A stretch of 64,000 nt of DNA from Psammoneis japonica (taxonomy: Eukaryota), in the NCBI GenBank assembly GCA_008632985.1, contig QPGO01000021.1, positions 434,001 through 498,000 of the forward strand, read 5' to 3'. The stretch's first letter is position 1; every line of letters starts with the position of its first letter. Below the pieces are notes generated by a model. It had not been told where the DNA came from, did not search any database, and was given only the letters and a program-made list of their open reading frames with translations. Of this stretch, positions 1 through 35,416 are shown piece by piece. Both the position numbers and the translations under genes were made by a program.

Positions 1-175
1 TCTTGCTCTTTGTTGCTCTTCGGAAGAATGAGTGAAGCAAACGAGAGAAGAGCAGAAAAAACCGTCATTTGCTCGCCAAGTTCGCGCAAGCACGTTCAAA
101 TTTGAATTCAAATGGTTTGCATGACCCAACGGTCAAATGCGGGTCATTTGCCTCGTCGCACTGCACAAGGTGGGC
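1..175 (-). repeat. Split direct repeat, copy A2 (truncated by window edge)
   Basis: Gap-free match to 6017-6191 with 6 mismatches (positions 21, 66, 67, 113, 120, 154). Confidence 0.95.
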
Positions 176-384
176 GGCTCACGCCGCCCGTCTTGTTCCT
201 TCTCCTGCGGCTCTCTAGCGCCATCTAGAGATCTTCCAATGATGGACTGGAATGGCTTTGCTGGCAGATGTGCAAGCCTCATTCCCAAAAACCCAAGCTG
301 GAACGGCAGGGCCTTCCAGCAACCACCCACAGTGCCGTGCACTTTTGGGAGGGTGGGTGGGTTGAGGCAGGAAGGCTGTGGTGA

Positions 385-1503
385 TCAGGCGTCTTGAGGA
401 TTTTGAGGGACGTCAGCATTGGGGTGGAGGACGAAGTCGCCACCGGCGAGCATGTCGCGAGCGAAGTTGCGCATGACTGGTTCTGCTTGCAAGTGCAGGT
501 GTCGCAACATTTCGTCGGATCGCCAGCGGCCTGAGAGCCGAATGAGATCGGTGTCTGCGCGGGCACAAAGGAGGGCCATTGCTCCGGCGGCACGAAGACA
601 CCGAGCGGCAACATCTCGGGTGGTGAAGCCGAGATTAGCCGGACCGAGAGCAGTGACAGCATTGCGCAGCATGCTGGTGATGTCAGCCGGGAACACACGA
701 CGCCAGGTGTTGTTTTGAAAGTGAACACCAAGGGGTGTGTCAGGGAGCGCACCGTGGGTGCGCAAGTGTTGGACACGGCGGATGAGGGCTTGAACCGGGC
801 ACAGGTGGGGGTGACCGGAAAGACCAAGCCCTGGAACTTCGCCTCGCACTCCATTTTTCTGGGTGGCAAAGGTGAGAGTGGCGAAGTCTGCTGTGTCAAG
901 GTGTGCAAGTGGAACTTGCATGGCACCCAGGTGAGCACCACCAGACGCAAGCCGGACATCGGCGAGACGAAAGGGGGTGGTGTCTGATGGTGTTGCGGTG
1001 CACTCGCCAGGCCGTGACAAGAAGAAAAAGGCAAGTGCAATCATTTCAGCAATGGCTTGTGTGCCCGGGTCATTGCTGAGGGCTGCGGCGGTCATAATCC
1101 ATTGCAGCACTGCAATTGGGACCGGTTTTACGCGGTCTGGGGGTGGATCCTGCTTCTTGTAAAAGCGGACTTGCCGGGTGAGGTGGAAATCCATTGTGCC
1201 TTGGGATGTGTGGCGTGGATCCGGGGACCCCATTGCAGCGAACGTTTGGCCAACCGAACGTGCGGCATCTTCAGCGGTTCTTCCACGGACGGGATTGCCC
1301 ATCGGCGCGAGGACTCCTGTGCGGTGTCGGTGCAAGAAGACTTGGAGGAAGACAACAGGGTCGTCAACGTCTTCGAGGAGTGGGTCAATGGCCAAAGAGG
1401 AGCAGAACTCTCGCCATTTGTCCCAATGGGTGTTGGCGGCGGAGGCTCTGGAAGAGGTGACGCCATGCTGGACTGCGCGTTGAGCAGCATTGAGATCACG
1501 CAT
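385..1503 (-). pseudogene. Tyrosine recombinase of Ngaro element; catalytic Tyr mutated to His
   Basis: Motifs FFFLSRPGEC (cf. FFFLLRPGEY), TFATQKNG, ARCLRAAGA, GRWRSDEMLRHLH (cf. GRWxSxxxxRY); codon CAC at 499-501; only 1 Tyr in 372 aa. Confidence 0.9.
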
Positions 1504-3365
1504 GAACTCAGTTCTGGTGGAGGCGTCCAGAGACGCCAGGAGAGTTTCTGCAGACAGTGCAAATTAAAGTGGTGCAAAAATTCACGGTTGGACAAAGACT
1601 GCAGTCGTGAGGCATCGTCAGCGGCAGTGTTGAGGCATCCAGGCAGGTGGTCATGCAACCCCAAGTGGCGATGGCAGCGTTGATGGCAGGATTGGCATCG
1701 AAGCAACCGGGAGGCGGGTTTGACGGCAGTGGTGGCACCTTTACGTTGCCAACACATGGTGCCTGAATTGTCGGTGTGTGAAAGACTGGCACGTTCACGG
1801 ATGTCAAAACAGTCGGCGGCGCCGAAGGACTGAATGACACTGCCGGCAAGTTCCAGGTCTGTGTTGGTGATGGGACCGCGTGGGTTGGAGAAAGTGGAGA
1901 GTTGACTGCTGACACTTTTGGGAAAGGGCAGTCGCCACACTGCAGGACCCGCATCTCTCTGTTGACAGCGTCTGCAATTGCCAAAACGGAGAGTGGCTGC
2001 TCTGGGTGCTGTGGCACTGGTTGGCAGGAGGACGCCGCCTGCGCCGTGACCTGCAGCATCATGACAGCCAGTGAGTGTTGGTTTGAGTGGAACCAATTCT
2101 TGAATGCGAACGGGTCGGGCGTCTAGGGTAGATTCTAGATTCCGAAAATCATCTGGTGCGCAGTGCGCATTGGCGGAGATCCGGACGCGTGAGTCCGGTG
2201 TGGTGTGTCGGAGATTTTCTTGGAGTGCTGAGAAGAGACCCCGGGAGCCAGGGACAGCAATGCTCAGAGAGCGTAGCTCTCCCAGCAATTTCTGACAATC
2301 GGAGATGGCAGCACGTTTACGTGTGCGGGGGAAATCCTGGTGCAGCATTATGTGAAGTCGGGCACGCCGTCGGGGCGCAAGCCGGATGGTCGTGGCGCGA
2401 GCATCTATGAGCCAACCCAGGACTTCTTTCTGCGTGGACCATGTGGCATCACCCTGGCGGAGCTTCTTGATGGAGACGGGCTCTTTGCGGGTGGCTGGGT
2501 CATGTGCATCGAGTGGGCGGAAAACGTCATCGAGAACATGCAGCATTGCATGGTGAACGTTGCGACGGGCTTGTTTCGAACCTTGCGCAGCGCCGAGGAA
2601 GTCGTCCACATAGATGTCGATGCATTGCAAGCGGCGGCACCGACGCGGACGGAGGTGTGGGTCGGGCGCATTGGGAATGGGCACGGCCTGGGAAGCTGCG
2701 GCAACTTGTGGTGGTTGGTGCTTCAGCGGGCGGCTTTCTAAAAGCGATTCCAGTGGATGTGGCGGTGCTTGGACGTTGCGCACCAAATCCAAATTGGCGA
2801 TGTCAGCGACAGTCTCCGTTGCTGTGCAGAACAATGGCGGGGAGTTGGCCCAGCCCATGGGCAAGCGTGTTGGGATTGCAACCAATGGTGGTTCGCCCGG
2901 TTGGTTCGGGAACACTGCACCAAGTGCAGGAGCCTGTTCTGGCGCAACTTGCATGCAGTGACAGCCATCAGCCAAGACGATCTTCATGAGATAGACCGTG
3001 CCTTTTCTGGGATCGGCAAGTGGGATACGGCGTAGAAGGCGGTCGAAGGCACGTCCAAATTGCATGGCTTCCATTGCAGCGTTGGGTTGCGTGGAAGGAT
3101 TCAGCCCATGACAGGCACAGTCTGCAATGGGGCGGGGACGTCGACCATGTTGAGGCACCACGCCAATTGGGCTCAGGCGAAGACCGGGGGTGTGACGCAC
3201 TTCCTCGTAAGGGATGACAACCCAAAAACCCTTCTCGACCACATCGGCCATGTCTTGGCGCAGAAACTCGATGTGTTCGTAGGCGGATTTGTGTGGACCC
3301 CTGGAGATGCTGGCGTCTAGCTCAGCATACGTCCATGGTGCATCGGCGGCGGTGATGGGGGCACC
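1128..3365 (-). pseudogene. Reverse transcriptase / RNase H of Ngaro element
   Basis: LSPIGVVPQ..RRPRPIAD, LPMGWANSPPLFC, IYVDDF, KEVLGWLID, DAAGHGAGG, TNTDLELAG, HTDNS, NTAADDASR. The frame continues upstream of 3251 (..RGPHKSA..FLRQDM) to a TGA at 3366-3368 that is probably CGA>TGA. Confidence 0.9.
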
Positions 3366-5921
3366 TCAGTGCTTGCAAGTGCTCAGCAGTCGGTGAGCTG
3401 GGTGTTGCTTGACTCGGTGGAGTGGACCCCAATCACCTCTGCCGCTGCAATGACGTGACAAGCAACTGAGACCTTTACGACGCAGTGACGCAGCATCAGT
3501 TCGCATGTGCTCACCTGGTTTGTCATTGTAGATTGCGGCAGCAACATCCTGTCCACGGGTGGTGGGGCGGGTGCGCTGCCTCTTGAAATTCTCCACAGTT
3601 GGGGGTTGTGGACGCGATGGCGCGTCGACCATCGCGGATGAAGGCTCTTGGCTCCAAGTCCCCGAACTTGGGCCATTGCCGAAGACCTGTTCGGTCTTCC
3701 AGTTCTCCTCACCCCAGGTGAGAAGGGTGGCCTGTTCGGCGTCTGTGTGGTCATTGCGATGATCATGGGACGAGCCACAGTTGGTGTCACATTGCCCTTT
3801 GTAATGGCAGGGAAAGCAACGAGGACGACCTTGGGCATCTTTGGGAAGTTCGATGTTGTCCCTTGCGCATCGGTTTTTGACATCGCGTGACCTGACGTTG
3901 GGGCGGTCACGAAGGTTGGCGAAGCGGTCATCACAAGAAGGGTTGCGGACTACGCTGTTGCTCCCTGCGGCTTGACTGATGGGGGGCATGTTGGCAGGCT
4001 GGTGTTGAGTTGCCGGGGCCGGTGCGGCTCCCAGCACAGAACTGGGGCTGGCAGCTTGCATGCTGGCGGGCAAGTGCGGGCGCCAGCACATGATTCCTTT
4101 AGCCGCTTCAAACACAACGTTCAATGGTGAGAATGGAAGCGGGTGAAGGGAGGCTTCTTGAGCCTTGAACCAATGGCGGACTTCAATCTGCGCACAGCGT
4201 TGAAAATCCACGGGAAGGGTTGGGCACCCAGCAGCCTGTGCTGCCAACTCATTGGCATGCCGGTCCATGTCTTGACGTTGACGGGTGAGCCACTGGACAA
4301 CTGGATGGTTGGCTCCAAGTGAGGCAGAAAGCACCAGGTGGTGTCCATCGCAGGACTGCTGAGCGGCTTGCATTGTCGTCGCCACGAGCGCCTTGTCTGG
4401 TGCTTCCAGGATCTGCGTGTCTTGGAGGGACGGGGCCACAGCGCCGCCATGAATGTGCATGTACATGGCCTTGCGACAGGCGATCTGCTCGGCACTGTCT
4501 GGCGTGGCAATCCCAAACTGGAATGGGGTGATGCCTTGGGTTGGCTCGTCTTGATTGTGACCAGCAAAATCGAGCTGTACGAGCTTGGTGACAAGGCCAA
4601 CCGTGACTGGTGCGTCAAAATGAACGGCCATCGCCTGGCGTTGCTCGTCAATTGCATTTTGGACGACTGTCAGGCGGCCTGTCTTAGGCGCTGCGGCAAG
4701 GGCGGCCCACACAGGCGGCAGTGCTGTCTCGTTGAGGGCGTGGCACCAATTCATGAGCTTGGTGACACCAAAAGGTCCCCAGAACTCATTGGGAACCTTG
4801 CCCCGGGCAGCCGCTTGTTGACGTGCGGCAGCGTCAAGTCGGAGTTGTCGTTGTTCAGTGGTGAGCTCTTCAATGGCCTGCACAACCGGCTGGAAGTGCT
4901 GCGCGGTGGGTGGTGCACGACCCAGTCTTCCAGGGATGTCCCGCTCCACCTTGGCATCAAAAAATTGAGTGAGGGCTTCGTCAGGGGGGCGTGTCATGAC
5001 AGGCCAAGGTCGCGCCACAACAGATGCCACTTGGTTGTTGGGAGTGGCACAGCAGGCGACGCGCAAGAAGTCGAGCAGTGGTCGGATGGCAGCCACCTTG
5101 TCAGCTGCCGCAGCGGCGCCGTGCACGCGCTGGTGGGCTTGTTTGGGATGCAAGGGCTGTGCCAACAAGAGCGGCACGGACTCAAATGGCACGTGCATTG
5201 CATGTCGTGTCCGCACGACCTCCGAGTTTGGTGCATCCTCAGCCAGATGCGGATGCAGGCCTTCCGCATTGTCAGTGACATGCTCCAGGAGTGCGGCGTG
5301 GGTCGGTGCCCCAGTCCCCTGCTGTGCCAAGTTGAATGAGTCGTCCCCGAATTCGACCAGGGTAAACTGTCCACGGGTTAGGTCACCTGCCATTGCGTGC
5401 GTCTCACCGTCCCAAGGTTCGGCAGGTCCAACCACGGTCGTCGGATAAGTGGTGACGCGGTGCAGGACTTGGATCTGTCCTTCGTCCGCTGTGCCGTCCT
5501 CTTGGCAGTGTGTGATGACTGCCATCGGCTGATCGTGACTTGACGCCGCTGCAACTCGCCCATGGAGTGACCCGGGGTTGTGTCTCGAAGGTCCCTGAAC
5601 CGGAACCGCGAAGTCTGGCATCGACTCATCGCATGCCCCCCGGTGTGGGTCGTCAGCGGCTGTGAGGTAAAAATCCCGATGCATCGCAATGACCGGCGGC
5701 ACTGCCGGCACGGCTTGTGCACCCGGTGGCGGTGGCGGCACGACGGCTCCTGCTGCTTGCGGTGCCAACGGAGGCACCGGGACTTGTGGAGGAGGAGGTG
5801 GGGGAGCGTTTTGGGCTGCCGCGGCAGCTGCTGCAGCTCCTCTTTGCGGTGGAGCAGGGTCGTTGGCATTTTGGGCGTTCTGGGCCCCTTGTCCTGCGTT
5901 TTGCTGCTGTTGCGCATCCAT
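3366..5921 (-). pseudogene. Gag-like ORF1 of Ngaro element (reads through into the pol N-terminus)
   Basis: Long ORF with Pro/Ala-rich N-terminus and a Cys/His cluster (CFPCHYKGQCDTNCGSSHDH) near its C-terminus; same frame as pol; lies directly after repeat A1. Confidence 0.8.
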
Positions 5922-6016: not shown

Positions 6017-6191
6017 TCTTGCTCTTTGTTGCTCTTTGGAAGAATGAGTGAAGCAAACGAGAGAAGAGCAGAAAAAACCGTTGTTTGCTCGCCAAGTTCG
6101 CGCAAGCACGTTCAAATTTGAATTCAAACGGTTTGTATGACCCAACGGTCAAATGCGGGTCATTTGCCTTGTCGCACTGCACAAGGTGGGC
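6017..6191 (-). repeat. Split direct repeat, copy A1 (5' end of the Ngaro element at 6191)
   Basis: Match to 1-175 stops abruptly after ...CACAAGGTGGGC at 6191. Confidence 0.95.
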
Positions 6192-9100
6192 AGAGTGGGG
6201 CTCATTGGCAGGGTTCAACGAGTGCGTCCACATCCACCTCCAGCAGCAGCTTTGCAACATCATCTCATTGCTGATGTCCTTCCAACCAAGACAGGTTTTC
6301 CTCTCTTTGTTGGCACTGTCACCAGTCAATGCTGAAGACAGAGTGCCATTGCCCTGAGGAGCTTGTGCCTCCAGTGAAAGGTGCTTTTCTTGCTGTCTTT
6401 GTTCGCGGAGTCAAGCACCAGCACCCCCTGCAAGAACTTTCTCTCTTTGTTGTTTGAAGCTGTGACACTCTGTTGATTTGGTGTGTCTGCTGTCATTTGG
6501 AACTCATCAAAAGTGCAAACACTCATGGATCATTTCCCAGACAGACAACTCATTGTGGCAAACCAAAACCCCTGTCTGCGTTTCTCAATCTTGACCACAC
6601 CACAACCAAATCTCCTGCTGTGGTGGTGCAGCGTGACACATGGATGGATTCTGGGATCTGCAGTTTGTCATCTGCCCTTGTTTTGACTTGTCTTGCACTT
6701 GCCCCCAGATGAGCAGATGTGCTCATTGGGGTGCACCACAGCAGCCCTCTGCTCTCCAACAGCAGAGAGCAGGGTTGTTGAGTGTGCTGGTGCAATTTTC
6801 CATGGCAGAAAAAAAATCCCAAAGTGCAGTCTGGCTGTGTGTCATGAGAGAGTTTGTCCCATGTTCTGGGGCAGGGATGTGCGCACTCTTGTTCCTTTTT
6901 TCTGAAAGCACCACAATGTCAAACAACAGCAACGGCGAGCAACAACAACATTGACAACCCCAGAAAATGTGCCAACATCAACTGCCAATGTGGTGGAATG
7001 GCCATGAGCACCCATGCATGTCCTGGTCATCATTGTCAAAACATTTGCACCACATGGCATGTGTGGGGTGGCTGCAAAAAAGCCCACCCAGGCACCTGCA
7101 CCTTGTGTTGTGCCCCAATTTCAAAAGCAACAGACCCACTCAAACAGCACCACACCCACCCTGAGAGGATCTGGGGTTCAGCAGAAACAACAGCTTCCAC
7201 CACCACATCAGCAAGAGGGCCAAATCTTCCTCCAGCTGCAGACATGACAAACAAAGAGAAGAGATGAAAAAGCGGGATGTGGAAAGCTGCTGCAAGACAG
7301 AAACAAATGTGCTCTCACAAGCCTTGCTCTCCATGCCTGAAACCCTCTGGTGCAATCATGCAATGCTGTGGTGCACTTGCCAAGTTCATGCCTTTTTGCA
7401 ACAATGCAAGTCTTGTTGCAACCCCACCCATTTCCAAACTGTGAGCATTGACAAAAATTCAACGAGAAGAAGTTGGAGACACCAAAATGGAGTGGTCCAA
7501 AAACAATGTCAAAGAAGACTTCTTTATGTTGGCAGCCCCGCCAAGTGTGTTGTGAGCTCAAGCTGTGCTGTCTTACAACAAGGGAGCAATCATTGCCAAG
7601 CACAGCTCCAAATGCATCAAGTTGCTTTTGAGCTGCAGCACCATGGTCTGTGCTTGACAAAGAAATGAGTGACAGTGCCCCAACTTCAGTGGCTGAATGA
7701 GCAAAACCTGGGTGAGCTGATGATGCCAGCAGCAGGACACTTGATGGCAGGACATGAGCCCAGTTTCCAATCATGCTTTGCTCGTCATTCATCAAATTGA
7801 GGAAATCCCACAGAGAGAAGAAAGCTTGGAGGAAACTCAAGAGCAGGGTGGTGTGAACGCCTGCATCTCAAGCAAGCTGTGCCCAGCACCCACAATTTGT
7901 GCACTGAATGAGCTGCAGCAAGACAGAGTGAGTCTTGAGACATTGTTGAAATTAAACAAGAGAACAAAACAGAGAGCTCAAATGCACCCACACTTGTCAC
8001 TCAGCTGTGCCAGCCAACTGCCGGGCCACACTGCCCTCCCACCAAGGCAACCACAAAGTCAAAATGCCAAGCAACAAAGAGTTGTGGTGTCAAATGTGAG
8101 TGGGGGCAACAACACCAGCTTTTGCAGGGGGGCAGAAGAAACTCCCTGGTCATTCACACCAACAGAAAGAGGGGGAGGGCAAAGCATGGGTGCTCAAACT
8201 GCTGGTTGCATCAGGGATGATTGCCAAAGCACCAGCAGCTGACAAAGTGCACTCAGTCTGCAGCAAAGGGGAGTCAGCCATCAACACTCTTCAAGCAATG
8301 CAAAAAGACAAGTGGCACAATGGGCACCCCAAGCTCAGGATGCAATGCACACAGCAGCAACAACACAATGAGATGACATTTGCTGTCTCAGCCATGGTGT
8401 CATTCATGTTGCACTGTTGCACATCAATGGAAAACCCCAAGTGTGCAGAAACAAGAAGTCAATGATGAGTTGGTGCAAGAACATGCCAAACAGACCTTGG
8501 TCATGAAGTGCAATGAGAAATGCATGTGAGGGTGCAACACACACAACAAGGTTGACTCTGACAATGGCGCGTGTCATGTCAAGAGTTGCAGTGTGTCGTG
8601 GAGCTGCTGGTGTGTGCCAACAGAGAAAACTCCAAATTTTCAGGAGCAAGAGAATGAGTGGTGAGTTGGCACAACATGCAACAAGACAGATCACAAAAGT
8701 TGAATGCAGTGTGAACCTTGCATGGCACAAGCAGTGCACGTGCAACATGCACAACAAGGCAGTGGTTGTGTTGAGTCAGCCACAGCATCACAACAACAAA
8801 AATCCCAATTTTGCAAAAGCAAAACAATGACCTTAAAAAGAAACAGACCACAAACATCAAATTCAATGAAAGCAACATTGATGGAACAAGCACAAGGTGA
8901 GAAAAACATGCCACATGGCTTTTCTGCATCAAACACACCCGGGGGGGGAGGGGGCAAAAAGTGAGACCAGAGGCAAAGCAATCAAACTGTCTTCTCTGGC
9001 AACACAACCAACCACTTTTCCTCACTGTGGCATGTTGATTCATTTGCACTGATGGCTCACACATGGGCCCAAACTGCAACCTAAGAAAATTGTTCCATGG

Positions 9101-11131
9101 CAGGGAAAAAATGGGGGACACCTGTGCCACCAGCAAAAAAGCCTCGGCTCTCCTCCTCACAAACAATGTGCCAACAAGAAAAAAGGCAAAAGACAGGGTG
9201 GCAAGGTGATGGCAAAGCAAAGCCACACACTGACCCAATGGCACCAAGCCCATTGCTTGAAGACATTAAATGCGCTGGTCTGCTTGTGAACAAACCAGCA
9301 CACTTTTGCACAAAATTCATGTGCACCCCAGAGACACTTGTCACTTCTCAAGCCTCCACTCTCTCACACACAACACACTGCACAGAGGAAAAGCCAATGA
9401 GATGCCTCAGAATCCAAAGAAGAAATGCACGACAATGAAGAAGCAATCAAAGAAGTCAAGCCATCTTGACAAGAACTCATCAAGCAGTGATGATCTCTTT
9501 GCCAACATCAGACCCTAAAGAGATGGAAGATCAACAACCTGACACCAAGATGATCTTGCCAACAACCTTGTGTGAGCAAGAATCATGTGCACTCCTCCAC
9601 TCCATTGGAAAACTTGGAAGAACAAGAGTCAGAAGCAGAAGATGAGCCATTGGAAATGTGAGATAAAATCAGAAGATGTTCAACACATGGCTGACAACTC
9701 TGTCAAAGCCAAAAGCACTCTGAGTGGTCCCCCAAGAATCTCAAAGCAAGCGCTGGCAATTGTCCAAGAAATCCTGGGTCAAAACACACCAGATGGAACA
9801 TGTTCAGGGTGGAATTGGAGTGTTCCTGTGGAGAGCGGTGAGATCTTTGAAAGACACTCCAGAAGAAATGCTCAGCAGCTGGAAGCTGTTCAGTTTGGCA
9901 GGAAAGCCAAATGAGCTGAAGGTGACAAAGAAGCAAGTGTGCAACTCCATTGTGTCAAAAATGACAATGCTGTCATGCAACCCAGTGCACAGAGCAGTTG
10001 TGTTGGAGAGATCTGTGTGGTGAATTTGGTCTTCAAGAGAAGCTTGAGTGTGGACAAATCTTTGAGGAGAACAAAATGATTTGAGAGATTGCAAAGGAGA
10101 AATGTCAGATTCTGTGTACACATCATGAAAAAAAACCTTCCAGTGCAGCAACAGACACGGTGAGAAAAGAGAGACACCTGCAGAGACTGATCTCTGCAAG
10201 TTTGCTTCAATCACTGGGTGTCCACCATTTGAAGAATTCAAAGAGGAGCAAGGTGTGGAGGAAGATTTGGTGCACATTTGCTCCCAACCCCTCTGGAACA
10301 GAAGGCACAGAGGTGCAACATGAAGCACAGCAATGAAAGAGCACAGATTTCTCAAGAGCATTGGTTCAATTCTCCATCAAGAAGAGCTCCACTCATGCTG
10401 TGAAAAAAGAGCAGAAGCCAGCAAGAGACATGAAGAGACACCAACACAGGCCACATCATTGCAACTGGGAAAGCATGCCTGGCCCTCCAAATGGCAACAG
10501 GGCCAGACAGATTTGGGTGGAAGAAACAAGCAAATGGAGAGTCCACTTGACTGAGCAAGGAATGGAAAAGACATGCAAAACCAAGGGAAGGTCAAGATGC
10601 AGACAAACAAAAATTGAAAGGAGCACAACACTGTTCTCATGAAGAAAGAGCCCCTGTTGTAAAAATTCAGATGCCTCACAGACAGACTGGCAGCAGAACA
10701 AGTGCTCCAAGAAACCTGTGAGAAAAAGGGGCAGCTGAGATCTCATGAAGCAGCCTCAATCCCATGGTGTGCAGCCAGGTTGCATGAAACTTGAGCCAGT
10801 GTGATGCAACCTGGTGGTGCCCACCCACAGCTTTGTTCCATCAGGCCATGGAGGAGAGCAGGTTGTGCTTGCAAGTTCTTCAACAGGGTGGGGAACAACT
10901 GGAAACAGTTTGGAGCTGCTGGTGTGTTGGAGGCAGGAAAACTGCAAGCATGTCTGTGACAGCGTTGGTGTGGTGCACCCAACACTTTCTTCCACACCAA
11001 GTTGATGAGCAGGAGTGCCAAAGGAGGCAAGGACAGAGAGCAGCATGGCACACAGCAGTTCTGGCCTGTTTGCTTTTCAATCTTCAAACAATTCAATGAT
11101 GCACATGGAGTGTGCTCATCATCAATCAATG
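6192..11131. other. Heavily decayed repeat-like sequence (TpA- and CpG-depleted), origin unidentified
   Basis: Hand count about 1 TA and 4 CG in 8001-9000; dense short Cys/His-rich ORFs in all frames without recognisable motifs. Confidence 0.6.
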
Positions 11132-11136
11132 GCAAG

Positions 11137-11414
11137 TGACAGAAACTGAAGGCAAATGGCAAGAATTCAAACTACAACTCCTCACTGCTGTCTAAATGGC
11201 AGATGAGTCTCCGCTCAGAGACCGTCACAGGAGCCAAAAGACGTGCAAGTCAGCACAATCGGGCCACTGTTGTCATTCTTGTGAGCCGTGTGGCTTGAAA
11301 GCAAACTGCATTGCGCGCGCACGCGTGGAACTAAAGAGCACACAAAACTGTGCACGGCAAACTAAACAGCGCGTGACATTTCGCGCACACCTGAATCCTG
11401 TTCAAATCCTGTCA
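11137..11414 (-). repeat. 3' LTR (278 bp)
   Basis: TGACAG..CTGTCA inverted termini, adjacent PPT and TSD; 11248-11414 aligns gap-free to 15483-15649. Confidence 0.92.
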
Positions 11415-12390
11415 CTCCCCAGTTTGCTTGAGGAGTCACAGAAACAGATTCGACTTCGGATGGAATGAAGTTCCAAAACATGAGGGGACAGAGAAGGTCC
11501 CAGATTTGGGAGCAACCCCAATGCTTGCTGAGAATGTCAGCAGGGTTGCAGGAGCCTTCGATGAAGTGGAGCTCAAGGTGACCAGAGGCAATCACCTCAC
11601 ACACACGATGGAATGACAGAGCGGTGTGTCACTTGTGTAACTTGGAGTGCGGGATGGTGGCACTGTCCACAACCGACTTGTTGTCACCAAACACGTCGCA
11701 CACTGGGTGCACTCGGATCTTCTTGTGTCCCGCAGGAGGAGTGGAAGACTTGGAGGGCCCACAGTCATGAAAGACTTTGCATTCATCGAGTTGGTCCATC
11801 TTGAGATTGGTTGCATCTCCCCATTTGCGGTTGCCGTTGCGTTCGTCTGGGGACATGGCATGTTTGCAGTTCCGGGAAACTTCACATCCACACTCACAGC
11901 GAGGTGCAGTGCAGAAGGAGCAAAGCTTGGCTTGGTTGGCCATGCGGAACAGCTTCTTCTGGCGCCTCGCGATGGTGCGGAACCGCTTCCAGCCATCAGC
12001 GTCGAGAAGTCCGTTCTCTCGTGCATAGATGGCGCAGGTGACAGGGTCATCCTTGGTGATGATGGCAAGAGGCTCGGACATGATCTCCCCACTTTCCCAT
12101 TCAAGCATGATGTTGCAGCTTGAGCCTTTCCAGGTTGGGTCATGAGGCTTCAGAGGTCCTTCATGTGACACAATGTGTTGAAATTTCCAAACAGCAGTGT
12201 CTTCGTCTTCTTGCTCAATGTGATTCATGATGACAGAGCAGACGAACTCAGTGAACTTGGGGTTGCCATTCACTTTCCAGTTGTGATCTTCAATGGCCTT
12301 GACGATGCGAGCTCTGTGGCATTGTCCATCCTCTTGTGGCTGCATGAGGAAGGTGCGTCCAATGATGTCTTGCAGATCAAAAACTGGCAT
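11362..12390 (-). pseudogene. Copia pol remnant: post-integrase region fused to RNase H C-terminus (RT deleted)
   Basis: DIIGRTFL, WKFQHIVSHEGPL, EWESGE..EPL..DDPVTCAIYA.ENGLL..GWKRF, GHKKIRVHPVCDV joined directly to FGDNKSVV..PHSKLHK*HTALSFHRV..NPADILSKHWG. Confidence 0.9.
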
Positions 12391-12498
12391 CTTGGGTGTC
12401 CTGATCTCCCCACCAGGTGAATCGACGGGGTTGTCGTCATGGCGAGATTTGATGATGGGTTCAGGTGGCTCCCCATCAGGAGGATCAAGACGCAGGTT

Positions 12499-14528
12499 TC
12501 AAATGGAAGGATCGGTGGTGGTGGATCGTACATTGGACCGGCAGAGGATCTTCTGAGTGATGGCGATGCACTGCAAGCCGTTGGGCACCTTGACAGAGCG
12601 ATCGTTGACATCGTGTTTGTGCCATTCGAGCTGGCCACAGGAATGAATGGTCTTGCCCTTTCCCGTGTGTGCGCGCTGGTGGAGGATGGCGATGACGGGA
12701 CCATGCTGTGTCTCTATGACAGCACCAGTGGTGACAATGGGGATGTCCACCAATTGATGGTCGTCAACACCCTGAACGTCGACTTGGCGAGAGGTGTGTG
12801 CAATGACGCGAACGTCGTCACCAGCAATGCCGCCGTTGGCTCCACGATCAACTAGAGCACCAGTGCATGTGGAGCGATGAGCAGAGGCAGAGCAAATGAC
12901 ATTGTGGTTGTCAACGCGGCGGCAAGTGCGGCCGTTAAGTTCCATGTCATCTGGAGGAGCAGGCGAGGCAGAGGGAGCGGCGGATGGGCCCGGTCGACTG
13001 GCTTTGGGGGCTTGGTTAGGAGACAACAGGCGTTGCAGATCACCGGGTGGTGGTGGCTTGTGCTTGGTGAGATGCGCTAGAATGGGATTGTCTGAAGTGG
13101 CACCCACATTCGGAGCGGGATCACCAGAGTCAGCAAGAGTCATGGCGGACAAGTTGACATCACCGTCACTCCCAAGTCGTTGGTCGTGAAGGTTGACCGC
13201 AACGGACTCATGGCAGTTGCCGGCTCGTGGGTTGCAAGGAGGCGGCCGAGAATGCCCAAGGATGATCGCCTTGGAGGAATTGGGCAACGAATCCCAAATC
13301 CGTTGGTGGTCGGGAGGGAGACGTTTCCATTGGTTGCCGGTGAGGCTGGGACCGCGGGTGCAGGCAGCGTTGGCCTGAAGGACGTCAATGTTGCTGTCGA
13401 TGTCACAGAACACATCATCGGATGGTTCCTCGGAGCAGACGTCATGTGCGTGTGTGACGCGGCAGGGAGCTTGAGGTGTCGTCTTGGGTTGAAATGTGCT
13501 GTCGCATTGAGCCGCCGCGGAGAGGAGCAAGCCACAACACTCTTGCCACTCTGCGTGCGATGTTGATCAGCTTGGTTCTTGACGGCGAGGAGTTCCTCGA
13601 CAGGATGTGCGGCATTCTCGAGCATGACGCGCTTCTGTCCTTCAGAGAAGTGGTCACTGGCTGGGATGAGTGCCTCGCATTTGCGCAACTGATCCTGCCA
13701 ATGAAGGATGAACCCGTGGGTCGGACCTTTCCAAGTGCCATCACCAAGGCGTGTGGTGGTGAGGTGCGTGAGCAAGGTGGAGGACTCGATGGATGCGTGG
13801 GTGGAGGCAAGTGCATGCTCGGACAAGGCGCGGCAGATGGTCTGGGCATCAGAAGACCCCACATTTTTGTGAATGAGAGCCTTGCCCTTGTCGGTGAGAA
13901 GGATGCGTTCAAAGACAGCGAACATGCACTTTTGCTGTTCAGCAAAGAGCAGTTTGTCTTCGGGGCTGGTCGGTTTGTACGACGAGTCTAGAATGCACTC
14001 GACGTCTTGGGCACGGGCTCATGCCACAAGTGAGGTGTGCCAAGTGTGCCACTGCTTGTCGGATTTGAGAGCCGTGAAAGCATTGGGGTCATGCTTGATG
14101 CCTTGCTTGAAGTCTCGCACTGGGTCGCGTGCCTTGGTCAGGATGGTGACATGCGGGGGTGCAAGAGGTGAGCTGCCGACGGACACAGAAGACATGCAGT
14201 CGGGGCTGAGGCGGTGGGAAAGGAACTCATCATGCGTGAACAATGAGGAGTCATTGGCAACATCAAGGCCTTTGTGTGTTTTGACAATGTACAGACTAAC
14301 TGGAGCTGCCAACATGTTCTCACAACCTTGGGGCAATGGGATCACATTGGTGCCGTTGTCACACTCAAGCGAGTCGATTTGGGAAGGCATGAACGTGAAC
14401 AGTTCTTGGCGCGAGTCCATGCCGTCATGGGTCAAAGCCAAACAAAGAGGGCTTCCAGCACCTTGGGCAAGCATGGTTCCAACAACGTGCTCGAAACCAT
14501 TGGTTTGTTGCTGACGAGTGAGAACCAT
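12499..14528 (-). pseudogene. Copia gag-protease remnant
   Basis: FKQGIKHDPNAF..KQW..W, A*ARAQDV (internal stop 14019-14021), MFAVFERILLTDKGKAL, FILHWQDQLR, MLENA; frameshift near 13530; protease LVDRGANGGIAGDDVRV and TIHSCGQLEW. Confidence 0.88.
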
Positions 14529-15482
14529 GGCAGACAAAAAACGGTGTCAGGGCAAGTGATTCTTGTCAGGACGTGGAGGTGGACTTGAAACTTGAGTGGG
14601 AATGGACTTGACTTGAAATGGACTTGACTTGAAATCTTGAACTGTCTTAAAATCAGAAGTTGCCGGGTTGTGCTGTCCCATTCATTGTCAAGTGCTAAAC
14701 TTCCCATCCGGTCCGCAGAGTTGTGCCGGCACGTCCGAACCCACAGCCAGCGGCGCTTTGGGTTGCTTGCGAGCAGAGCAGTGGGTTGTAAACCCCTGCA
14801 GGCAAGCTGACTGGAGGTGGACAAGACCCCCGAACCGTTCTCATTTTATGTCAGTTGGATTTCCCGATCAGGCTGGCCAGTTGACGCAGGCGTTGGGCGC
14901 TGTGGACGAACGAACAAACGCGGGAAAACACCCTCGCCCCAACGCAGGCTGCAATCACGGCCACTTGCTCTCACAGTCGTCCTCGTGGACCTGGCAGAAC
15001 TGCAGAGCACCAGCAGTCCGGGGCAGATCAGGTGCAAGAGACTCGGTGTGCCTGTAGAGTGGTGGCAAAGCCGCAGTCCAAAGAGTGGGTTCAAGTTCTT
15101 GGCCGTGAAGACACACACACACATGTCTTCAGCGACGAAGATCTTCGAATGTGTGGGGCTCTTGACCATTGACCGTTGAATGGGTGTGTCAAGGGATGAG
15201 GATCAAGGACAGACTTGGACACAACCGTTGAATGTGTGTCTTCAGCGACAAAAGGCAGCACAATCAATCCAGACATCCAGCGGTGAGGAGAGTTGACGGT
15301 GACGTTAAATTCCTGCCAATGCCTGGCATTGAATGCGCGTCCCGCAGACTTGCCGATGCACACATGGGGCACATGCGGAGGTCCACGCAGAATTGAAACA
15401 GCATCGTCGGCAAATCAACGACGACAATGGCGGTTGCTCAATGGGTTGACAATGAGCAAGACTGTCAATCTTTTTTTTTTTC

Positions 15483-15649
15483 AGTCGGTGCAATCGGGCC
15501 ACTGTTGTTGTTCTTGTGAGCCGTGTGGCTCGAAAGCAAACTACATCGCGCGCACACGCGCAGAACTGAAGAGCACACAAAACTGTGTGCGGCAAACTAA
15601 ACAGCGCACAACATTTCGCGCACACCTGAATCCTGTTCAAATCCTGTCA
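15483..15649 (-). repeat. 5' LTR, truncated after 167 bp and followed (minus strand) by A11
   Basis: Aligns to 11248-11414; T11 at 15471-15481; the part equivalent to 11137-11247 is absent. Confidence 0.9.
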
Positions 15650-15654
15650 GCAAG

Positions 15655-18600
15655 CGCAAGAGCAACGATGCATGCAATCAATTCATTCCATCCTCAGCTG
15701 TCTGCTCCAATTTGGGTGGTCCAGGAAGCACGTCATTGGCTCTGGGTGTGTCAGGCACCATGGTGTTGGATGAGGGTGTTCTGCGGGAGTGTGTGGTGGG
15801 GGAGGTGCGCGAAGCGTGCTTGGTGATGGGGAGAAAAAGGGTGGGCCAAAAGTGCAGACAGACGGTCGGGATGAAGAGTTGTCAGTGAGAACAGGATGGT
15901 GGATGAGTTGATCTTGGCATGAGGAGAGATGATGAGAGAGGGTGCAGCTGAAGTTGAGGCTGAGGATTTGAGAAGCCCAAAGTTGAGGTGCAGTGGTGTG
16001 GTGGGAGGAGCCAAAACGGTCAGGAGAAAGTTGTTTCCAGGCCAAGTTGGAGTGGACGAGGACATTGGAAGGGGCAAGCAGTGAGTTGGTGAAGGCGAAA
16101 AAGGGCGCTTGGGAGTTGGAAAGGGTGGGTGGGCTTGTCCAAGGTGGCTTGGGTGGGAGGGGTGGGGTGGAGGCGGATGTTGAAGCAGAAGTGCCAAAGA
16201 AGAAGATGTGAAAATGACACCCGATTCCGCCAAGATGGTCAAAGGTGAAGGGGAGAACTGGGGATCACACACTCAAGTTTGAGAATGCAGCAAATGGAAG
16301 ATGGCTAGACTCTTAGTGTGTTTTCTGCACACAACAAATGCGGGCACTTGCCCATCGTCGTGTGTCATTCTGAGTCACGAATGGTGATTCGTGGGCAAAA
16401 AAGGTCTGAAATCTGTCCTTTTGAGAATGAAACAACACGGTGAAGTGCGGGTCACCATGGTGCTCTTTGAACACCAACATGTCAAAATTCAATGGGGCAC
16501 ACGACTGCGTCTCGACCGCAATTAAGCTCAGCAGATAAACTTGTGCTTGCACAGCCATGAGACGCTTTCATGCGCCCCATTAGATTTTGAGATTGTGGCA
16601 TTCAAAGAGCGCCATGGAGCTGACGGTTTTTTGATGTTTTTGTGTCAGCAATGATTTCCCTGTAGAAACCCAGCACAATCGCATGCGGGTCATTTCAGAA
16701 ATCTCTTGGATGCAAATTTAACATTTCTCAACAGCAGTTGATGCAATGTGCGGCACAATCAAGAAAATGCCAAAAAAGACTGACCCCACCAAAGCTGCGG
16801 CATGCACTGCCATGTGTTGTGCAAAGGAGGGGAAGTCTCTTTGTCTTGCAAAGGTCAGCCAAGACGTGAACGAGAAACATTTTGGAAATCAACAGAATTG
16901 TGGCGGACACAATGAGCCAAACCACGTGCACTGCTGATGAGCCTTGGTTGCCTCCACCATTTTGAGAATGGCCAATGTAAAGAAAGGCAACTGCTCTGGC
17001 TCCAAAAACAATGAGCAGCCAACCAAGGCTTCATTGGATGAGTTGCAATGAGCGGGAAGTCGTGAGAACTGGCATCTTTTTGTTTGGCATCATGGCTCAG
17101 CACAAGTTTTGGTCTGCTGCCGAATTTGTGACAAGCGGGAAGACACAAGAATTGGCACTGTTGTTCAGCACTAGTTTGGCACTGTTTGCCAGCACAAGTT
17201 TTGTGCCATCTGCAATTTGTGAAACTTCATCCTTGTCCAGCTGCAGGAGTGAACCTGGTGCATTGTCCCTGGGACTCGCCGTCATGACCTTCCATTGCAG
17301 AATTGTTGCTGTGGGTGAACTCAAGGCCAGCCAAGTCGGCATCAGCAGCACCGCCAAACCAACAGTCTTTGCGAATGGATGCCATGTTCCCATCATTGTT
17401 GATGGGAGTGCCGTGCCACGTTCCCCAATGCCGCTGCTGACAGCATTCTCATCACAATGCTTGCAATGTGTGCGAGGCTGCACAAGATTTTGATTGCATG
17501 TGCGGTCACCGTGCAAGATGTTGCAAAGATGGGTTCCAGTCCTGGGTGGGACTCCGTGTGACATTGGGCCCGCAGAATTCCATGTGCAAGCTCCTCAGCA
17601 AATTTGCTCTGCAATGAAAATGCAAATGATTGCCAACAGAAAAAGAGGCAATTTTACGAACGCATCTCCTCCTCCACACTTGAAGCACATCATTGACAGT
17701 TTGCATGGGCATGTTCTTCAGACATCAAAGAACACACCCAGCACATTTTCATTCTCACAAATGTTGAAAATAGAAAGCCTTTGGCTTGGCAAAACAGGGA
17801 GCATGAAACACAATTTCGGAGAACACAACACATAGAAATGCACATGCGCAACATGCAATGCAATCCAAAAAACCATTGATGTCACAGTGCAGCAGTGCGA
17901 AGTCCCACCCAGAGCTGGAGCGCATCCAAACACAGAACAACACACAATGAGGTGCGGTCTGTCCAACCTCACATTGCTCCCAGACTTCAGTGCGTCATCC
18001 CTGCAAGGGGAGAAGGAAGAGTCTGGCTTGGTTGATGGCGTCGATGATGTCAGAGTTGGGAGCGGATGGTGCAGAGCAACCGAGCAGCTTGATGGACCAG
18101 CTGCGCTCTCATGGTTTGGCCGGCCAAGTGGCTTGCCTCGCAGGGAGGGACCCGGAGAGGTGTCTCGCAGTCACATGAAAGGTGCACGTCAACCAGGCAT
18201 TGTGTGCCAATCAGGGCCTTGAAGTTTGAGTTGTTTTTTGGAATTTTTTGAAAAAATGGGACCTCGTTGGTCTGTGAAAGGAGGAGCAAACGGAGCGTGA
18301 TTTTTCAAACCGGATGGATGGGTCTGACTTTTGTGGACCAAGTGCAACACATGAAGATGGATGAGGAAACAATGGTTTCAGGGTTCTGTCTGTGCTGCGA
18401 TGCATGGAACACCGATCATGAAGTTGAGACCAAAATTCAGAAAAAGAGCTCATGACACACCACACAATTGCATGAAAGCACAAAGGTCTCCAAAATGGTT
18501 CTGCAGATTTTGTTGTCATTCGCTCATGTTGTGCAGCTGAGTAAAAGAGGTGTTTTGGAAACAAGAAAAGTGGGGGGATTCTGACTCGTTTTCGAGATAA

Positions 18601-21480
18601 AAGGCACCAAAGTTGTTAAAAAAAACAGCACGAATGACGTCACTGCCTGCAAAAGTGTTCTTTGACGAGAACGCATGTGAGGAGTTGCAAATGTTGTTCG
18701 TGAACATAAAAGTGTGATTGTGTGACGCCAAGTTCGCCAATCGTGTTTTTGAAGGGCCACACGACAGCATTGTGATGATTGTGACCCAGTCATGCTGTAG
18801 AATGATGCAAATGATCACATCATGTCATGACACATCATGTGACATCGACATGTTGCCTTTGTTTTGACATGGCCAATTGCACAGCAATTTGTCATTGCGA
18901 CAAATGAAAGAGCATTTCGTTGGTTCTTTTCCTTTGACAAAAATGTCGCAAATCTCAGGAAGAGTTTTCTGATTGGCCAAAACACTTGGGGACAATGCCC
19001 TCTGACAAAACATCACACAAGCCCCACAAAACAATCACTTGAGCCCCTTAAAACTGACACAGCACCCATCTGCCTGTGCATGTGTTGTGATTGCAATCAT
19101 CACAGTCCCTGCCACTGTGATCGCACCAGCCAAAGACAAAACAATGACAGGCGACGGGATGCCTGCAGCCAATGGCACAAACATTGGAGTCCTCATCACT
19201 TTGTCAGAAGCAAAGCCTGAGATGTCAAGATTGAGAAGCAGTCCTCCGGCCAGTGCATCGAAAATGCAGCACACAGAAAAAGAGTTTTGTGCTTGCACAC
19301 CATGACCATGCTTTGTGCAGTTTGTTCCCTTGCCATTTTGTTCTGTCATGATTTTCAGTGCCTCACCATGAATCATCTGTGTGTGGTTTTAAATTGTACA
19401 GCAGGTTCTCTGCTGCTCTGCATTGCCAGAAACTCCTTCACAAAACATGGCCCACTTCCATGCACACGCTCCATGCTTGTGTGTTGCTTCAGCACCTTGC
19501 TCAAATCATCAGCTTGTCCAGTGCATGCAAAACTTTGATGACAAGCACAAGACAGAAACACAGCAAAACAACAAAACTCTTTTGCAGGGGTGCAGCTGGT
19601 GCATCTGGGGAGCAAAGCCAATTGGCGTGCTTTTTGCAACCTCGGCAGGGTGCCCTTGCCTTTTGCCTTTGCAGTGCCTTTTTTCTCTTCTTCTGATCCA
19701 GTGCTCCTGTTCCCTTTTTTCAAGATCATGCACATGACCCAACTTTGAGTTGTCTCCAGTGACTTTGCTCACCCCAGTTTGTGGCACGACCCCTGCTCTC
19801 ACTTGCAAACCCAGCCCTGCTGGCAGCTGGAAATGAGCTTTCTTGTTGTTTTTCTTCATGCACAAAAACAGCTCAGCAGCAGCTTCACTTCAAGCAAGAG
19901 ATCTGCTTTTGGCAACTGCCATCTGGCTTTGTTGGGTTCTTGTGACTGCAGCTCTTTCAAAGAGCAAGCTGGTGTGTCTGGGTTGCCACCTGGCGCTGCC
20001 CCCCAAGCTGCAGCTGCTGTCCACACAGCACACTCGCACCACAGCACAAGCTGGGTGAAGGAAAATCCTTGAGAAACTGGCCATTTCATGTGAAAACTGC
20101 ATTTGGAGGAGTTTGCTCTCAGCTGCTTGGATGTCAAAATTGAGCCCATTGCAAAACAAACAACCAGCTTGTCCTGGCGAGTGGACCAAGCTGGGACTTC
20201 TCTTCCACCCCAGTGAGGCCCCCCTCTTTGCTTTTCATTTCACATTGCTTTCAACACAAGAGTCTTTGTGACTTGATTTCACCTTTTAACACAGCACAAC
20301 TTGCGTGGCACTTGAGCTTTCTTTCACAAAACTTGCAATTCATGCCAACCATGGAGCTGTCTGAGAATGCAAATCTTTTGTTTTTCCAACAGCAAAACCT
20401 GTGTTTGCTGCAGCAGGTGCCTTGCTGCTGTGTCTTCTGTGCACCAGTGCACCATTTCTTGTCCCATCTGCTCTCTTGCCCCCTTGACTTCAAGCTGCTG
20501 CACGCCACAACTCAGGTTGCACCAAATGTCCCAGATCTCCAGGAGGCACGATGGTGCTGCAGCTGGCACTTGCCTGTTGGGCCCTTCTTCTTTCTGATTT
20601 TGTCAACAGCCAGCCAGAGTGCCAACACTCAACATTTGCCGCACCACCGCAACAAGCCTGTCACCTTGCTCTGCTGCCCCCCCTCCTTGCCCACATCATC
20701 CATCATCCCATCACCTCTTTCCATCAATCATGTGCCCGCCCACCCAGCACCACCTTTCCTCCTTCTGTGGCCACCCAAGTCTGCGCGCAACTTGTCCCGT
20801 GTGCTGCTGAGGTGAGCCTTGTTTGGGGGGGGGGGTCATCCCCACGTTTGTCCCAAAATTGCCACTGCACTTGAATGAGGTTTTTTGTGGTGTTCATTTT
20901 TGAACACAAGAATCATGCATGGTCACACCCGATCGTGCACGAAAACGAGAACCATCAGCACCGCAATCGAAGCACGACAATGATGACAATCATCGACATT
21001 TCTCAAAAACGAAGTTTGCCGTCTGCCAACTTTTCATGTGTGTGCAATCTTTGACACGAGTTGGCAGACGGACCACCTCCGACACAGACTCATGGCTTGT
21101 TGTTTTCACCACGGTGAAGCGCGGTGAAATTCACAAAAAATCATGCAAAACACGAGTTGTTCGGCCAAATTCGAGCCAAAAAAGCAGCAACCGACCACCC
21201 TTGATGGGTTTTTGGAGATGCCTGTCCCGTTGAAAAATTTTGCGAACTTTTTTTTGCACATGCAAAATCTCAAGAATGAAAGACAAAATCGAAAATCGGC
21301 TTTCGTCACGCCACACAGGACACTCTGCTGTGTGGCGTGATGAAACCCGATTTTTGAGTTTCGTCATGGTGAGACCCCCAGAGCCCGTGCAAATTAGTGA
21401 CAACTTTTTGTCCTCAAGCATTTGCACAATGTGCAAGTTTGCACGAACATTGCGAGCTCCAAGAGAGAAATGTCGTTACA
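15655..21480. other. Decayed TpA-depleted mosaic of unidentified elements and gene fragments
   Basis: TA nearly absent; 17500-17930 is homologous to 33830-34250; a protein-like hydrophobic ORF at 19035-19376 (-); non-coding A/T-tract-rich stretches near 16300-16720, 18230-18960 and 20900-21500 resemble transposon ends. Confidence 0.55.
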
Positions 21481-21731
21481 TGCATGTCGATGCCGCAATG
21501 TGCACATTCTGGCTAGAACATAAAAAATCTATCGCCAATCAACAAGCGACAGTCATTGTCACTTAGGAAATCCCAATGCTTTCAGAGAAGGTCAAAGCGT
21601 CCCAGAGATGTCCATTCGACATGAGACACAATTCGTCTTGAAGAGCTCTTTACGAGCTTTCTCTTGATATATAGGTTATGGGGTCTATGAGGACATCCTG
21701 AAAAAAAGTTCGCAAAATTTTTCACCGGGAC
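21224..21731. repeat. 31-bp inverted repeat pair (MITE-like or subterminal repeats of a DNA transposon)
   Basis: GTCCCGTTGAAAAATTTTGCGAACTTTTTTT (21224-21254) vs reverse complement of 21701-21731: 1 mismatch. No clear TSD. Confidence 0.7.
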
Positions 21732-35100: not shown

Positions 35101-35416
35101 GGGAAAGCACACAAAGAGCACAATCGGGCCACTCATAACGGGGATCCCCACCTTTGCGAAATCCTCCGCAAGCAGCTGCTTACGTTCTTTGAAGGTGTCG
35201 GAAAACAGAACTGTGTCGAGTTGTTTGCGTCTGAAATGGAAGTCATGTACGATGAAATGCCCGCAACATCGCTTCAAGAGCAAATGTCTCAACAACAGCT
35301 TCGTCCGGATGACTAAGGACAAGGGATGCACAGCTTTTGACGACATGTGCGAACAAGCTAGTAAGTAACCCTACTCTACTAGAGCCCCCCACCTCGGCCG
35401 ATCCTCTAGAGAGGGC
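32181..35416 (+). mobile_element. Unidentified decayed element between the two duplicated units (core TpA-depleted)
   Basis: Bounded by the duplicated segments; internal direct repeat 32427-32581/33297-33449; fragmented plus-strand coding sequence homologous to 17500-17930. Confidence 0.55.

Follow-up and report, generated by a model that had tools for sequence, protein, structure and literature searches.

How a recombinase gene can come to lack the tyrosine through which its product would act, and still be read as one long frame, is the question raised by a locus at the start of a 64,000-nucleotide stretch of diatom DNA (the window, in what follows). The answer that we consider very probable is that this is a dead Ngaro-like element in a pennate diatom, in which a host process has turned some 78% of TA steps into TG or CA, blind to reading frame and on both strands. 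The lost catalytic tyrosine is then a clear illustration of TA erasure, and no separate mechanism need be sought for it. From the window edge inwards, the element reads as follows.

1 to 175, minus strand: internal repeat A2, 97% identical to 6017 to 6191 and clipped by the window edge; B2 would fall beyond the window start.
176 to 384, minus strand: probable repeat B1, placed by its location between the recombinase gene and A2; the window has no second copy.
385 to 1503, minus strand: tyrosine recombinase (YR) open reading frame, 372 amino acids, with a predicted Cre-like fold; R164, K216, R304 and W327 are intact and Tyr335 is replaced by His.
1128 to 3686, minus strand: reverse transcriptase/RNase H (RT/RH) frame, with 885 homologues, the best 65% identical; its 3′ end overlaps the YR gene.
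3690 to 5921, minus strand: gag-like open reading frame, with a C-terminal Cys/His knuckle-like motif at 3759 to 3818.
6017 to 6191, minus strand: 5′ terminal repeat A1, the match to A2; a TA at 6136 is retained where A2 has CA.

The three genes stand in Ngaro order, all on one strand, and A1 and A2 of the split direct-repeat plan, A1-[ORFs]-B1A2B2, are present in the window; in three related loci (L002, L014 and L029) repeats also lie behind the YR gene, with a B-to-B spacing of 347-379 nt. Pfam gave no match for the YR, RT or gag proteins of the window. Homologues of the RT match PF00078 below the curated cut-off, and PF00589 was seen in 3 of 34 YR family members at an E value of 0.019 or weaker. 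Assignment of gag is by location and by 23-31% identity to the open reading frame upstream of RT in related loci, with no domain match. Space for a methyltransferase is lacking, as RT/RH overlaps YR directly and residues 1-331 of the YR model fit Cre, and no Pfam methylase match was found in five RT and two YR homologues. Absence of that domain is described as a trait dividing Ngaro from DIRS and PAT elements, with the rider that some PAT elements have lost it (PMC4157794). The layout A1-gag-RT/RH-YR-B1-A2 fits the Ngaro definitions given in PMC8547959 and PMC4157794, and with B2 beyond the window the label is kept at ‘Ngaro-like’. Features in common with Ngaro (DIRS order) as described from Cafeteria burkhardae (PMC8547959) are a length of about 6 kb, gag-RT/RH-YR on one strand, a 5′ direct repeat recurring behind YR and no space for a methyltransferase. 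Unlike that description, the YR here has R-x-x-R in place of H-x-x-R, and in the family gag and RT are in one frame, divided by a single stop. Summed depth in sequencing run X1 is 500-2200 across the element and 64 in the flank; this suggests that the family has many copies, but is not itself a copy number. Six related loci (L002, L005, L008, L024, L040 and L054) are circularly permuted or tandem, gag recurring after YR with a period of 5.9-6.3 kb, and may reflect assembly of multi-copy elements or circular intermediates.

Identity as a tyrosine recombinase, first proposed from the letters by the initial annotation, gains its support from predicted structure. Profile searches of PDB sequences gave no match for the YR and a fold search was needed. 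The model (pLDDT 90.7, built from 117 sequences) matches Cre in Foldseek (E 1e-6, TM 0.54-0.59) and in VIA (Z 18.1, rmsd 4.0, 270 residues aligned), the next matches being integron, Xer and lambda integrases, and by this model the protein is a tyrosine recombinase with a Cre/Xer-like core-binding plus catalytic fold. Catalytic residues of the class follow the pattern R...K...H-x-x-R...H/W, the set in Cre being R173, K201, H289, R292, W315 and Y324. Each of the four residues of this pattern listed above as intact is at least 90% conserved in the family. At residue 301 (601-603, minus strand) an Arg stands instead of the His of H-x-x-R, as it does in at least 90% of 117 YR family sequences; the H-x-x-R motif is the one given for the YR of Ngaro elements (PMC8547959). 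The structural alignment ends with model residue 326 on Cre 314, which puts W327 on Cre 315, and the sole conserved Tyr behind W327 is residue 335, eight residues on. Model residues 327-337 have pLDDT below 50, and it is by register and conservation, not by geometry, that residue 335 is taken as the equivalent of the Cre nucleophile. Two sites of the gene are pertinent.

499 to 501, minus strand: codon of the conserved nucleophile, here CAC (His), within RWRSDEMLR-H-LHL.
1000 to 1017, minus strand: motif LSRPGEC, in the family LLRPGEY, around catalytic Arg164, with Leu>Ser (TCA, 1015-1017) and Tyr>Cys (TGC, 1000-1002).

The YR has 777 homologues, the best 72% identical, and conservation was counted over the best 120 of them. 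Of the 119 that have a residue at position 335, 118 carry Tyr and one, P0003, carries Cys; position 163 is Leu in 115/120 and position 168 Tyr in 116/120. Both the CAC in the tyrosine position and the double change in LSRPGEC had been noticed by the initial annotation and are confirmed by these counts, as are its tallies of 1 Tyr in 372 amino acids for YR, 3 in 707 for RT (from the first ATG) and 5 in 862 for the gag frame (from TTG 5954). Homologues of the YR have from 2 to 12 Tyr, and at least 4 in 119 of the 120. The window copy has lost five of six Tyr-majority columns, that of the nucleophile included. Since recombinases of this class require the Tyr nucleophile, recombinase activity of the window copy has presumably been lost.

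That the family is naturally TA-poor with a His recombinase, or that the sequence is an artefact of assembly, is scarcely credible. The family does depart from the textbook motif in having R301 (at least 90%), but conservation of Tyr335 among homologues refutes a natural His variant, and TA is at ordinary levels in gene blocks elsewhere in the window. It had been asked of the original observation whether active homologues carry His or Cys at these positions; with Tyr in nearly all of them, the observation stands. Bearing on an artefact, an X1 contig matches 5005 nt of TA-poor flank with seven differences, X1 being possibly the source of the window itself. Columns with conserved Tyr hold no His or Cys in 112 of the 120 homologues and one in 7 of the 120. 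P0003, 71% identical and from a metagenome, has His or Cys at three of four such columns, its Cys at the nucleophile being the reciprocal of the His in the window. The top Atlas cluster for the YR carries a Bacillariophyta label, derived from two members.

The scale of the depletion extends well beyond one gene. TpA O/E in the element is 0.146, against a median of 0.64 and a minimum of 0.25 in 62 related metagenome loci, and CpG O/E is 0.81 against 0.89 in related loci. Seven repeat blocks of the window lie at TpA O/E 0.03-0.15, the six other than the element at 0.03-0.10, and three gene blocks at 0.53-0.64, and in a 1-kb profile the borders between the TA-poor domain and genes are sharp.

1 to 21000: TpA-depleted repeat domain, comprising, besides the element, one that is Copia-like and older flanking DNA.
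6192 to 11150: TpA O/E 0.03.
11161 to 15649: TpA O/E 0.10.
15650 to 21000: TpA O/E 0.06.

In the three open reading frames, 32 TA steps are observed where some 145 would be expected, about 110 or 78% having been lost, an ancestral level estimated from relatives that are just 30-60% identical in protein. The excess of TG plus CA (+247) exceeds the loss of TA plus CG (170). Direction and context are given by 634 conserved columns (at least 70% agreement among the 15 closest homologues), at 93 of which the window differs. A single A:T>G:C change explains 31 of the 93, and 27 of these 31 are in TA context against 30.5% expected (p 9e-11); at a 90% conservation threshold the figure is 17 of 18. Single C:G>T:A changes explain a further 15, of which 12 are in CpG (p 0.004), and the rest are 30 transversions and 17 requiring more than one change. 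Among 17 Tyr-majority columns 12 are lost, seven to His and five to Cys, with no other outcome.

Reversion in silico, a check proposed with the initial annotation, gives a concordant answer. The window protein and P0003 were kept out of the profiles, and a gain was counted when a single change added at least 2 bits; reversion of TG or CA to TA gained at 9/134 YR and 20/237 RT sites, against 1/321 and 2/547 for the same transition in the three other contexts (Fisher p 1e-4 for YR, 3e-9 for RT). Combined, TA-type reversion raised the profile score by 30.5 bits for YR and 70.2 bits for RT, other contexts giving less than 6 bits except for CpG in RT; CpG reversion gained at 1/113 YR sites (+2.4 bits) and 6/236 RT sites (+21.7 bits). 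In 60 of the 62 related loci the signal is absent, with pooled rates of 22/3605 and 114/12111. Mutation of TA to CA or TG, the cause first suggested, is thus supported by context, by reversion and by TA survival. Low TpA alone was rejected as a marker, as L026, L003 and L021 have O/E 0.25-0.41 with no TA-type damage. Two other loci, L057 (4/53 against 0/125) and L059 (6/85 against 3/199), show the TA signature at a nominal p below 0.05 that fails correction for 62 tests; together with P0003 they are leads to environmental relatives with like Tyr>His/Cys or TA-type damage.

CpG decay, a slower process, goes on alongside TA erasure. In the element TA loss (78%) is far ahead of CpG loss (roughly 10-20%), and TA loss is taken as the faster process because CpG in the element is near-intact with TA mostly gone, while the older flanks, where CpG O/E is 0.10-0.39, have lost both. 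Survival of TA is uneven, being 0.36 in RT against 0.16 in gag and 0.13 in YR (p 0.015). Surviving TA clusters within the RT region at 2124-3529, for which patchy editing, conversion by a copy of younger age or selection on the parent copy are candidate reasons. Over the TA-poor parts of the window (1-21000, 32300-34500, 43500-48000 and 54000-56000), the 5′ neighbour of surviving TA is T in 104 of 244 and A in 25 of 244, the corresponding figures in gene blocks being 400 and 543 of 2036; TTA/TAA may be hit less readily, or TA may form anew there.

Given such losses, is tyrosine itself the target? The proposal had been that TpA is mutated because doing so knocks out Tyr-dependent enzymes (YR, HUH/Rep, and RT through its YxDD motif), Tyr codons being the functional target. 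As arithmetic the logic holds: every Tyr codon contains TA, and every change in it is missense. The loss of nearly all Tyr-majority columns in the YR, the nucleophile among them, and of three of four conserved Tyr in P0003, with Cys at the nucleophile, is in keeping with it. However, Tyr codons lose TA no more than other sites do, survival being 0.24 both for codon positions 1-2, the Tyr case, and for 2-3, and 0.18 for 3-1 (chi-square p 0.76), and the 5/17 Tyr-majority columns retained are in line with an overall survival of 0.22 (p 0.56). Of the 27 TA-type changes at conserved columns eight affect Tyr, and the other 19 fall on Leu, Val, Ile, Thr, Lys or Met; non-coding flanks are more TpA-depleted than the open reading frames; and the tyrosine of the RT motif, one of the supposed targets, survives.

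2601 to 2612, minus strand: RT YVDD motif, its Tyr codon TAT (2610-2612) intact.

Specific disabling of Tyr-dependent enzymes does not therefore agree with survival that is equal at Tyr codons and elsewhere, and we regard tyrosine as an improbable target. Loss of Tyr may bring an evolutionary benefit, though nothing in the data shows one. In the explanation preferred, the host process would rewrite TA to TG or CA irrespective of coding. Tyr codons, since they start with TA, would in some 70% of cases become His or Cys, with the recombinase nucleophile included, and the same process would alter codons for Leu, Val, Ile, Thr and Lys and probably erase the gag stop (TAG>CAG).

The stop codons of the element are pertinent to the persistence of long frames. 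By enumeration, changes of TA to CA or TG create stops in 0 of 2560 cases and remove them in 384 of 2560, and it is because TA erasure cannot create stops that long frames persist. Dead elements may accordingly hold or even gain long open reading frames and look intact to annotation. The initial annotation had held that the frames stay open and that inactivation needs no stops. The second point stands for TA erasure as such, and long frames are indeed present, but RT carries a TGA and the gag frame runs into RT, the 862-amino-acid ‘gag ORF’ from TTG 5954 being gag plus about 107 N-terminal RT residues.

3366 to 3368, minus strand: premature TGA in the RT frame, in a column where 9 of 12 close homologues have His and the best match, P0121, has Arg.
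3643 to 3689, minus strand: gag/RT junction, with CAG (3687-3689) at the family stop position, then 6 nt, then a predicted hairpin opened by GGC (3643-3680).

Homologous RTs run upstream through the first of these sites with His, Arg or Lys, no related locus having a stop there, and the TGA came probably from CGA by the slower CpG decay. With this nonsense codon in RT besides the loss in YR, the window copy is dead for more than one reason.

At the junction, which reads GAA CAG GTC TTC GGC directly after the W motif of gag, relatives have an open reading frame upstream of RT that shares the RT frame and terminates at a single stop. An upstream stop is visible in 50 loci (45 distinct), and 43 of the 45 place it 80-200 codons before the RT match. 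The stop in these 43 is TGA in 38, TAG in 4 and TAA in 1 (e.g. L004:2348, L011:1997). GG[CT] is present at +7 to +9 in 29 of the 43, and a G follows all four TAG as it follows the CAG of the window. From such comparison CAG 3687-3689 is probably an erased TAG, the change having fused gag to the start of RT.

How the family would express RT downstream of that stop merits comment. Across 41 loci the 55 nt after it (+7 to +61) have a mean z of -1.85 against shuffles and a predicted hairpin, ten other offsets giving means of -0.28 to +0.25, and in 14 of the 41 there is no Met between the stop and the RT match. For the hairpin of the window itself z is a weak, non-significant -0.62 over 70 nt; four other spans gave values of -1.1 to -4.1. 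Pairing at +7 to +9 was 0.72-0.85 against 0.69-0.78 with the downstream part shuffled, and lends the GGY stem no separate support. For loci that are related to one another and a hairpin that is itself a prediction, stop-codon readthrough in this YR family is a fairly likely reading. An in-frame stop with predicted 3′ RNA structure is also found at the gag-stop-pol junction of murine leukaemia virus (PMC4178896), and the 3′ stem-loop near the alphavirus readthrough stop resembles the family junction (PMC3159437). Caution comes from Candida Tca2, also with an in-frame gag-pol stop, whose junction alone did not direct readthrough in yeast (PMC2194720). The present family differs from all three in being a tyrosine-recombinase element with mixed UGA, UAG and UAA, and in that its readthrough is predicted. 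Among the titles and opening lines of abstracts of top-ranked matches in freely accessible papers there was no report of readthrough in DIRS or Ngaro elements, and the in-frame stop with its hairpin would, if the prediction is right, be a readthrough signal in a tyrosine-recombinase retrotransposon new to the literature searched.

At what stage of the life of the element TA was erased can be approached through strand and repeat comparisons. By hand tally over YR and RT, the 27 TA-type changes divide almost evenly when read on the coding strand, 13 being T>C and 14 A>G, a balance that speaks against RNA, or a single strand of cDNA, as the substrate. Pre-integration editing of element RNA by an ADAR-like activity, or of single-stranded cDNA, has in its favor that ADAR prefers U before the edited A (10.64898/2026.01.13.699255) and that DIRS elements have single-stranded cDNA intermediates (PMC7192593). 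It predicts one direction on the coding strand, contrary to the tally, and sits ill with a TA difference between A1 and A2 and with erasure in non-coding flanks; strand symmetry refutes it unless several rounds edited opposite strands, and we give it very little credence.

A1 and A2 differ at 6 of 175 nt, by transitions only: three CG-type, one TA-type and one TG/CA double. Nine CG and no TA are shared by the two. Copies of a split repeat are expected to be near-identical at insertion (PMC6681497), and the TA difference implies that erasure acted on inserted DNA, at least partly. X1 contigs have TA at 2155 (four contigs) and 3174 (six contigs) where the window has TG and CA, in a comparison for which 40 of 984 differences were listed and X1 is possibly the window's own source. 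Classification covered 23 of the 40, leaving out 17 at 6348-6462 from one divergent contig. Among the 23, CG loss accounts for six (one a transversion) and TA loss for five (one a transversion, one part of a TG/CA double). One clear TA site and one ambiguous double in 175 nt, along with the two X1 sites, thus suggest that the process acts after insertion, on integrated chromosomal DNA. The His codon at 499-501 may nevertheless have come down from a parent copy in which it was mutated already.

Other repeats of the window are instructive in this regard. The stretch 11161-15649 (minus strand), which we take to be Copia-like from motifs and for which Pfam gave no match, has, beside its low TpA O/E, a CpG O/E of 0.73, and its summed depth in run X1 is very high. 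Its 167-nt end repeats (11248-11414 and 15483-15649) have 17 mismatches, all transitions at CG, TA or TG/CA. A third, older copy of the end repeat lies near 54544-54764. A 1.2-kb duplication (30991-32180 and 35417-36588, about 94% identical) is in TA-normal DNA, with 1-kb bins at 0.68-0.69, and A/G transitions after T make up just 9 of the 38 in it; at 30991-36588 duplication by itself brought no TA erasure.

What chemistry might be responsible is less certain. TA is a palindrome, and A>G on one strand is indistinguishable from T>C on the other. We would put at about even the chance that the step is enzymatic deamination of adenine: a TadA/ADAT-type enzyme, brought to silenced repeats, would convert A to hypoxanthine, which is read as G. 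The analogy is with Bigelowiella natans, where Mettrop et al. find that integrated viral DNA acquires TpA>TpG/CpA mutations de novo, at a rate per site and generation of about 6e-7, some 1000 times background, in a process active in some lines, and propose, without demonstrating it, an ADAT2-like deaminase (10.64898/2026.01.13.699255). For this step only, a competing suggestion is that TpA in silent chromatin carries a modified base (methylated adenine or oxidised thymine), which decays or is copied wrongly by a polymerase or repair route prone to error. In that case no deaminase would be dedicated to the task, and the process might have no part in defence. CpG decay, a by-product of methylation, is found in the same blocks, most strongly in the older flanks, and the palindrome conceals which base changed. 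Against this are the great excess of TpA over CpG loss in the young element, and, for B. natans, a rate that varies by line and is so far above background that its authors read it as regulated (10.64898/2026.01.13.699255). A modified base is accordingly a possibility that we consider doubtful, and deamination the better candidate.

Comparison with the repeat-directed mutation of fungi is apt. RIP makes TpA from CpA through C:G>T:A. As here, RIP in ascomycetes consists of transitions in a particular context, which ruin repeats on both strands but leave genes alone. TA erasure runs in the opposite direction, with TpA depleted rather than enriched and with C>T at conserved columns mostly in CpG (the 12 of 15 above), and has opposite consequences for stops, in that RIP-type changes create them in 384 of 2560 cases, the same number that TA erasure removes while gaining none.

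With B. natans the likeness is closer. NCLDV and virophage DNA there and the element here share TpA>TpG/CpA on both strands; the process there is confined to foreign DNA, as here TpA O/E is low in repeats with genes spared; and TpA-poor coding sequences of B. natans are enriched for RT and DDE domains (10.64898/2026.01.13.699255). The hosts differ, one being rhizarian and the other a stramenopile. De novo targets in B. natans are described as viral regions, one of them single-copy, at TpA Rho 0.45 (10.64898/2026.01.13.699255), unlike the retrotransposons and old repeats here at 0.03-0.15, which have CpG decay alongside and are known from sequence rather than from a de novo rate. A search for TpA loss in diatoms (top-ranked matches in freely accessible papers) returned fungal RIP, B. 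natans and unrelated papers, and no report; so far, by the literature searched, a TA-erasing process has been reported from that one unrelated alga.

A broader proposal, advanced tentatively, is that diatoms possess an enzymatic editor of DNA, directed at repeats and changing A to G, which would mirror RIP and is perhaps shared with Rhizaria across SAR. It would strip Tyr, nucleophiles included, and erase UAG and UAA gag-pol stops while leaving no nonsense codons, and preference for UGA (the 38 of 43 above), the lone TA-free stop, might represent escape. Were the diatom to share the TpA editor of Bigelowiella, the process would span two SAR lineages and be near saturation on retrotransposons. 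It could then stand beside fungal RIP as a second case of a genome defended by mutation, and a natural DNA adenine editor would have relevance for the base-editing field.

Beyond the TA-poor domain the window holds host genes at 22432-63291, for bestrophin, a ZIP transporter, a GH47 mannosidase with a PA domain, GnT-I, an FAD monooxygenase, a PHD-finger protein and a cyclin. For GnT-I, all eight organism-named matches among the 120 listed are pennate diatoms (45-53% identity), which is the ground for placing the host there; an Atlas search with one host open reading frame gave no usable match. A MITE-like element at 21224-21731, bounded by terminal inverted repeats of 31 nt (97% complementary) and with a further inverted repeat of 34 nt inside, lies where the TA-poor domain gives way to the genes. 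A Thr/Pro/Glu-rich protein with a Cys-rich end is encoded at 49467-50861 (minus strand), and its tandem repeats, in units of 48 nt and 189 nt, have ordinary TA (0.45-0.48).
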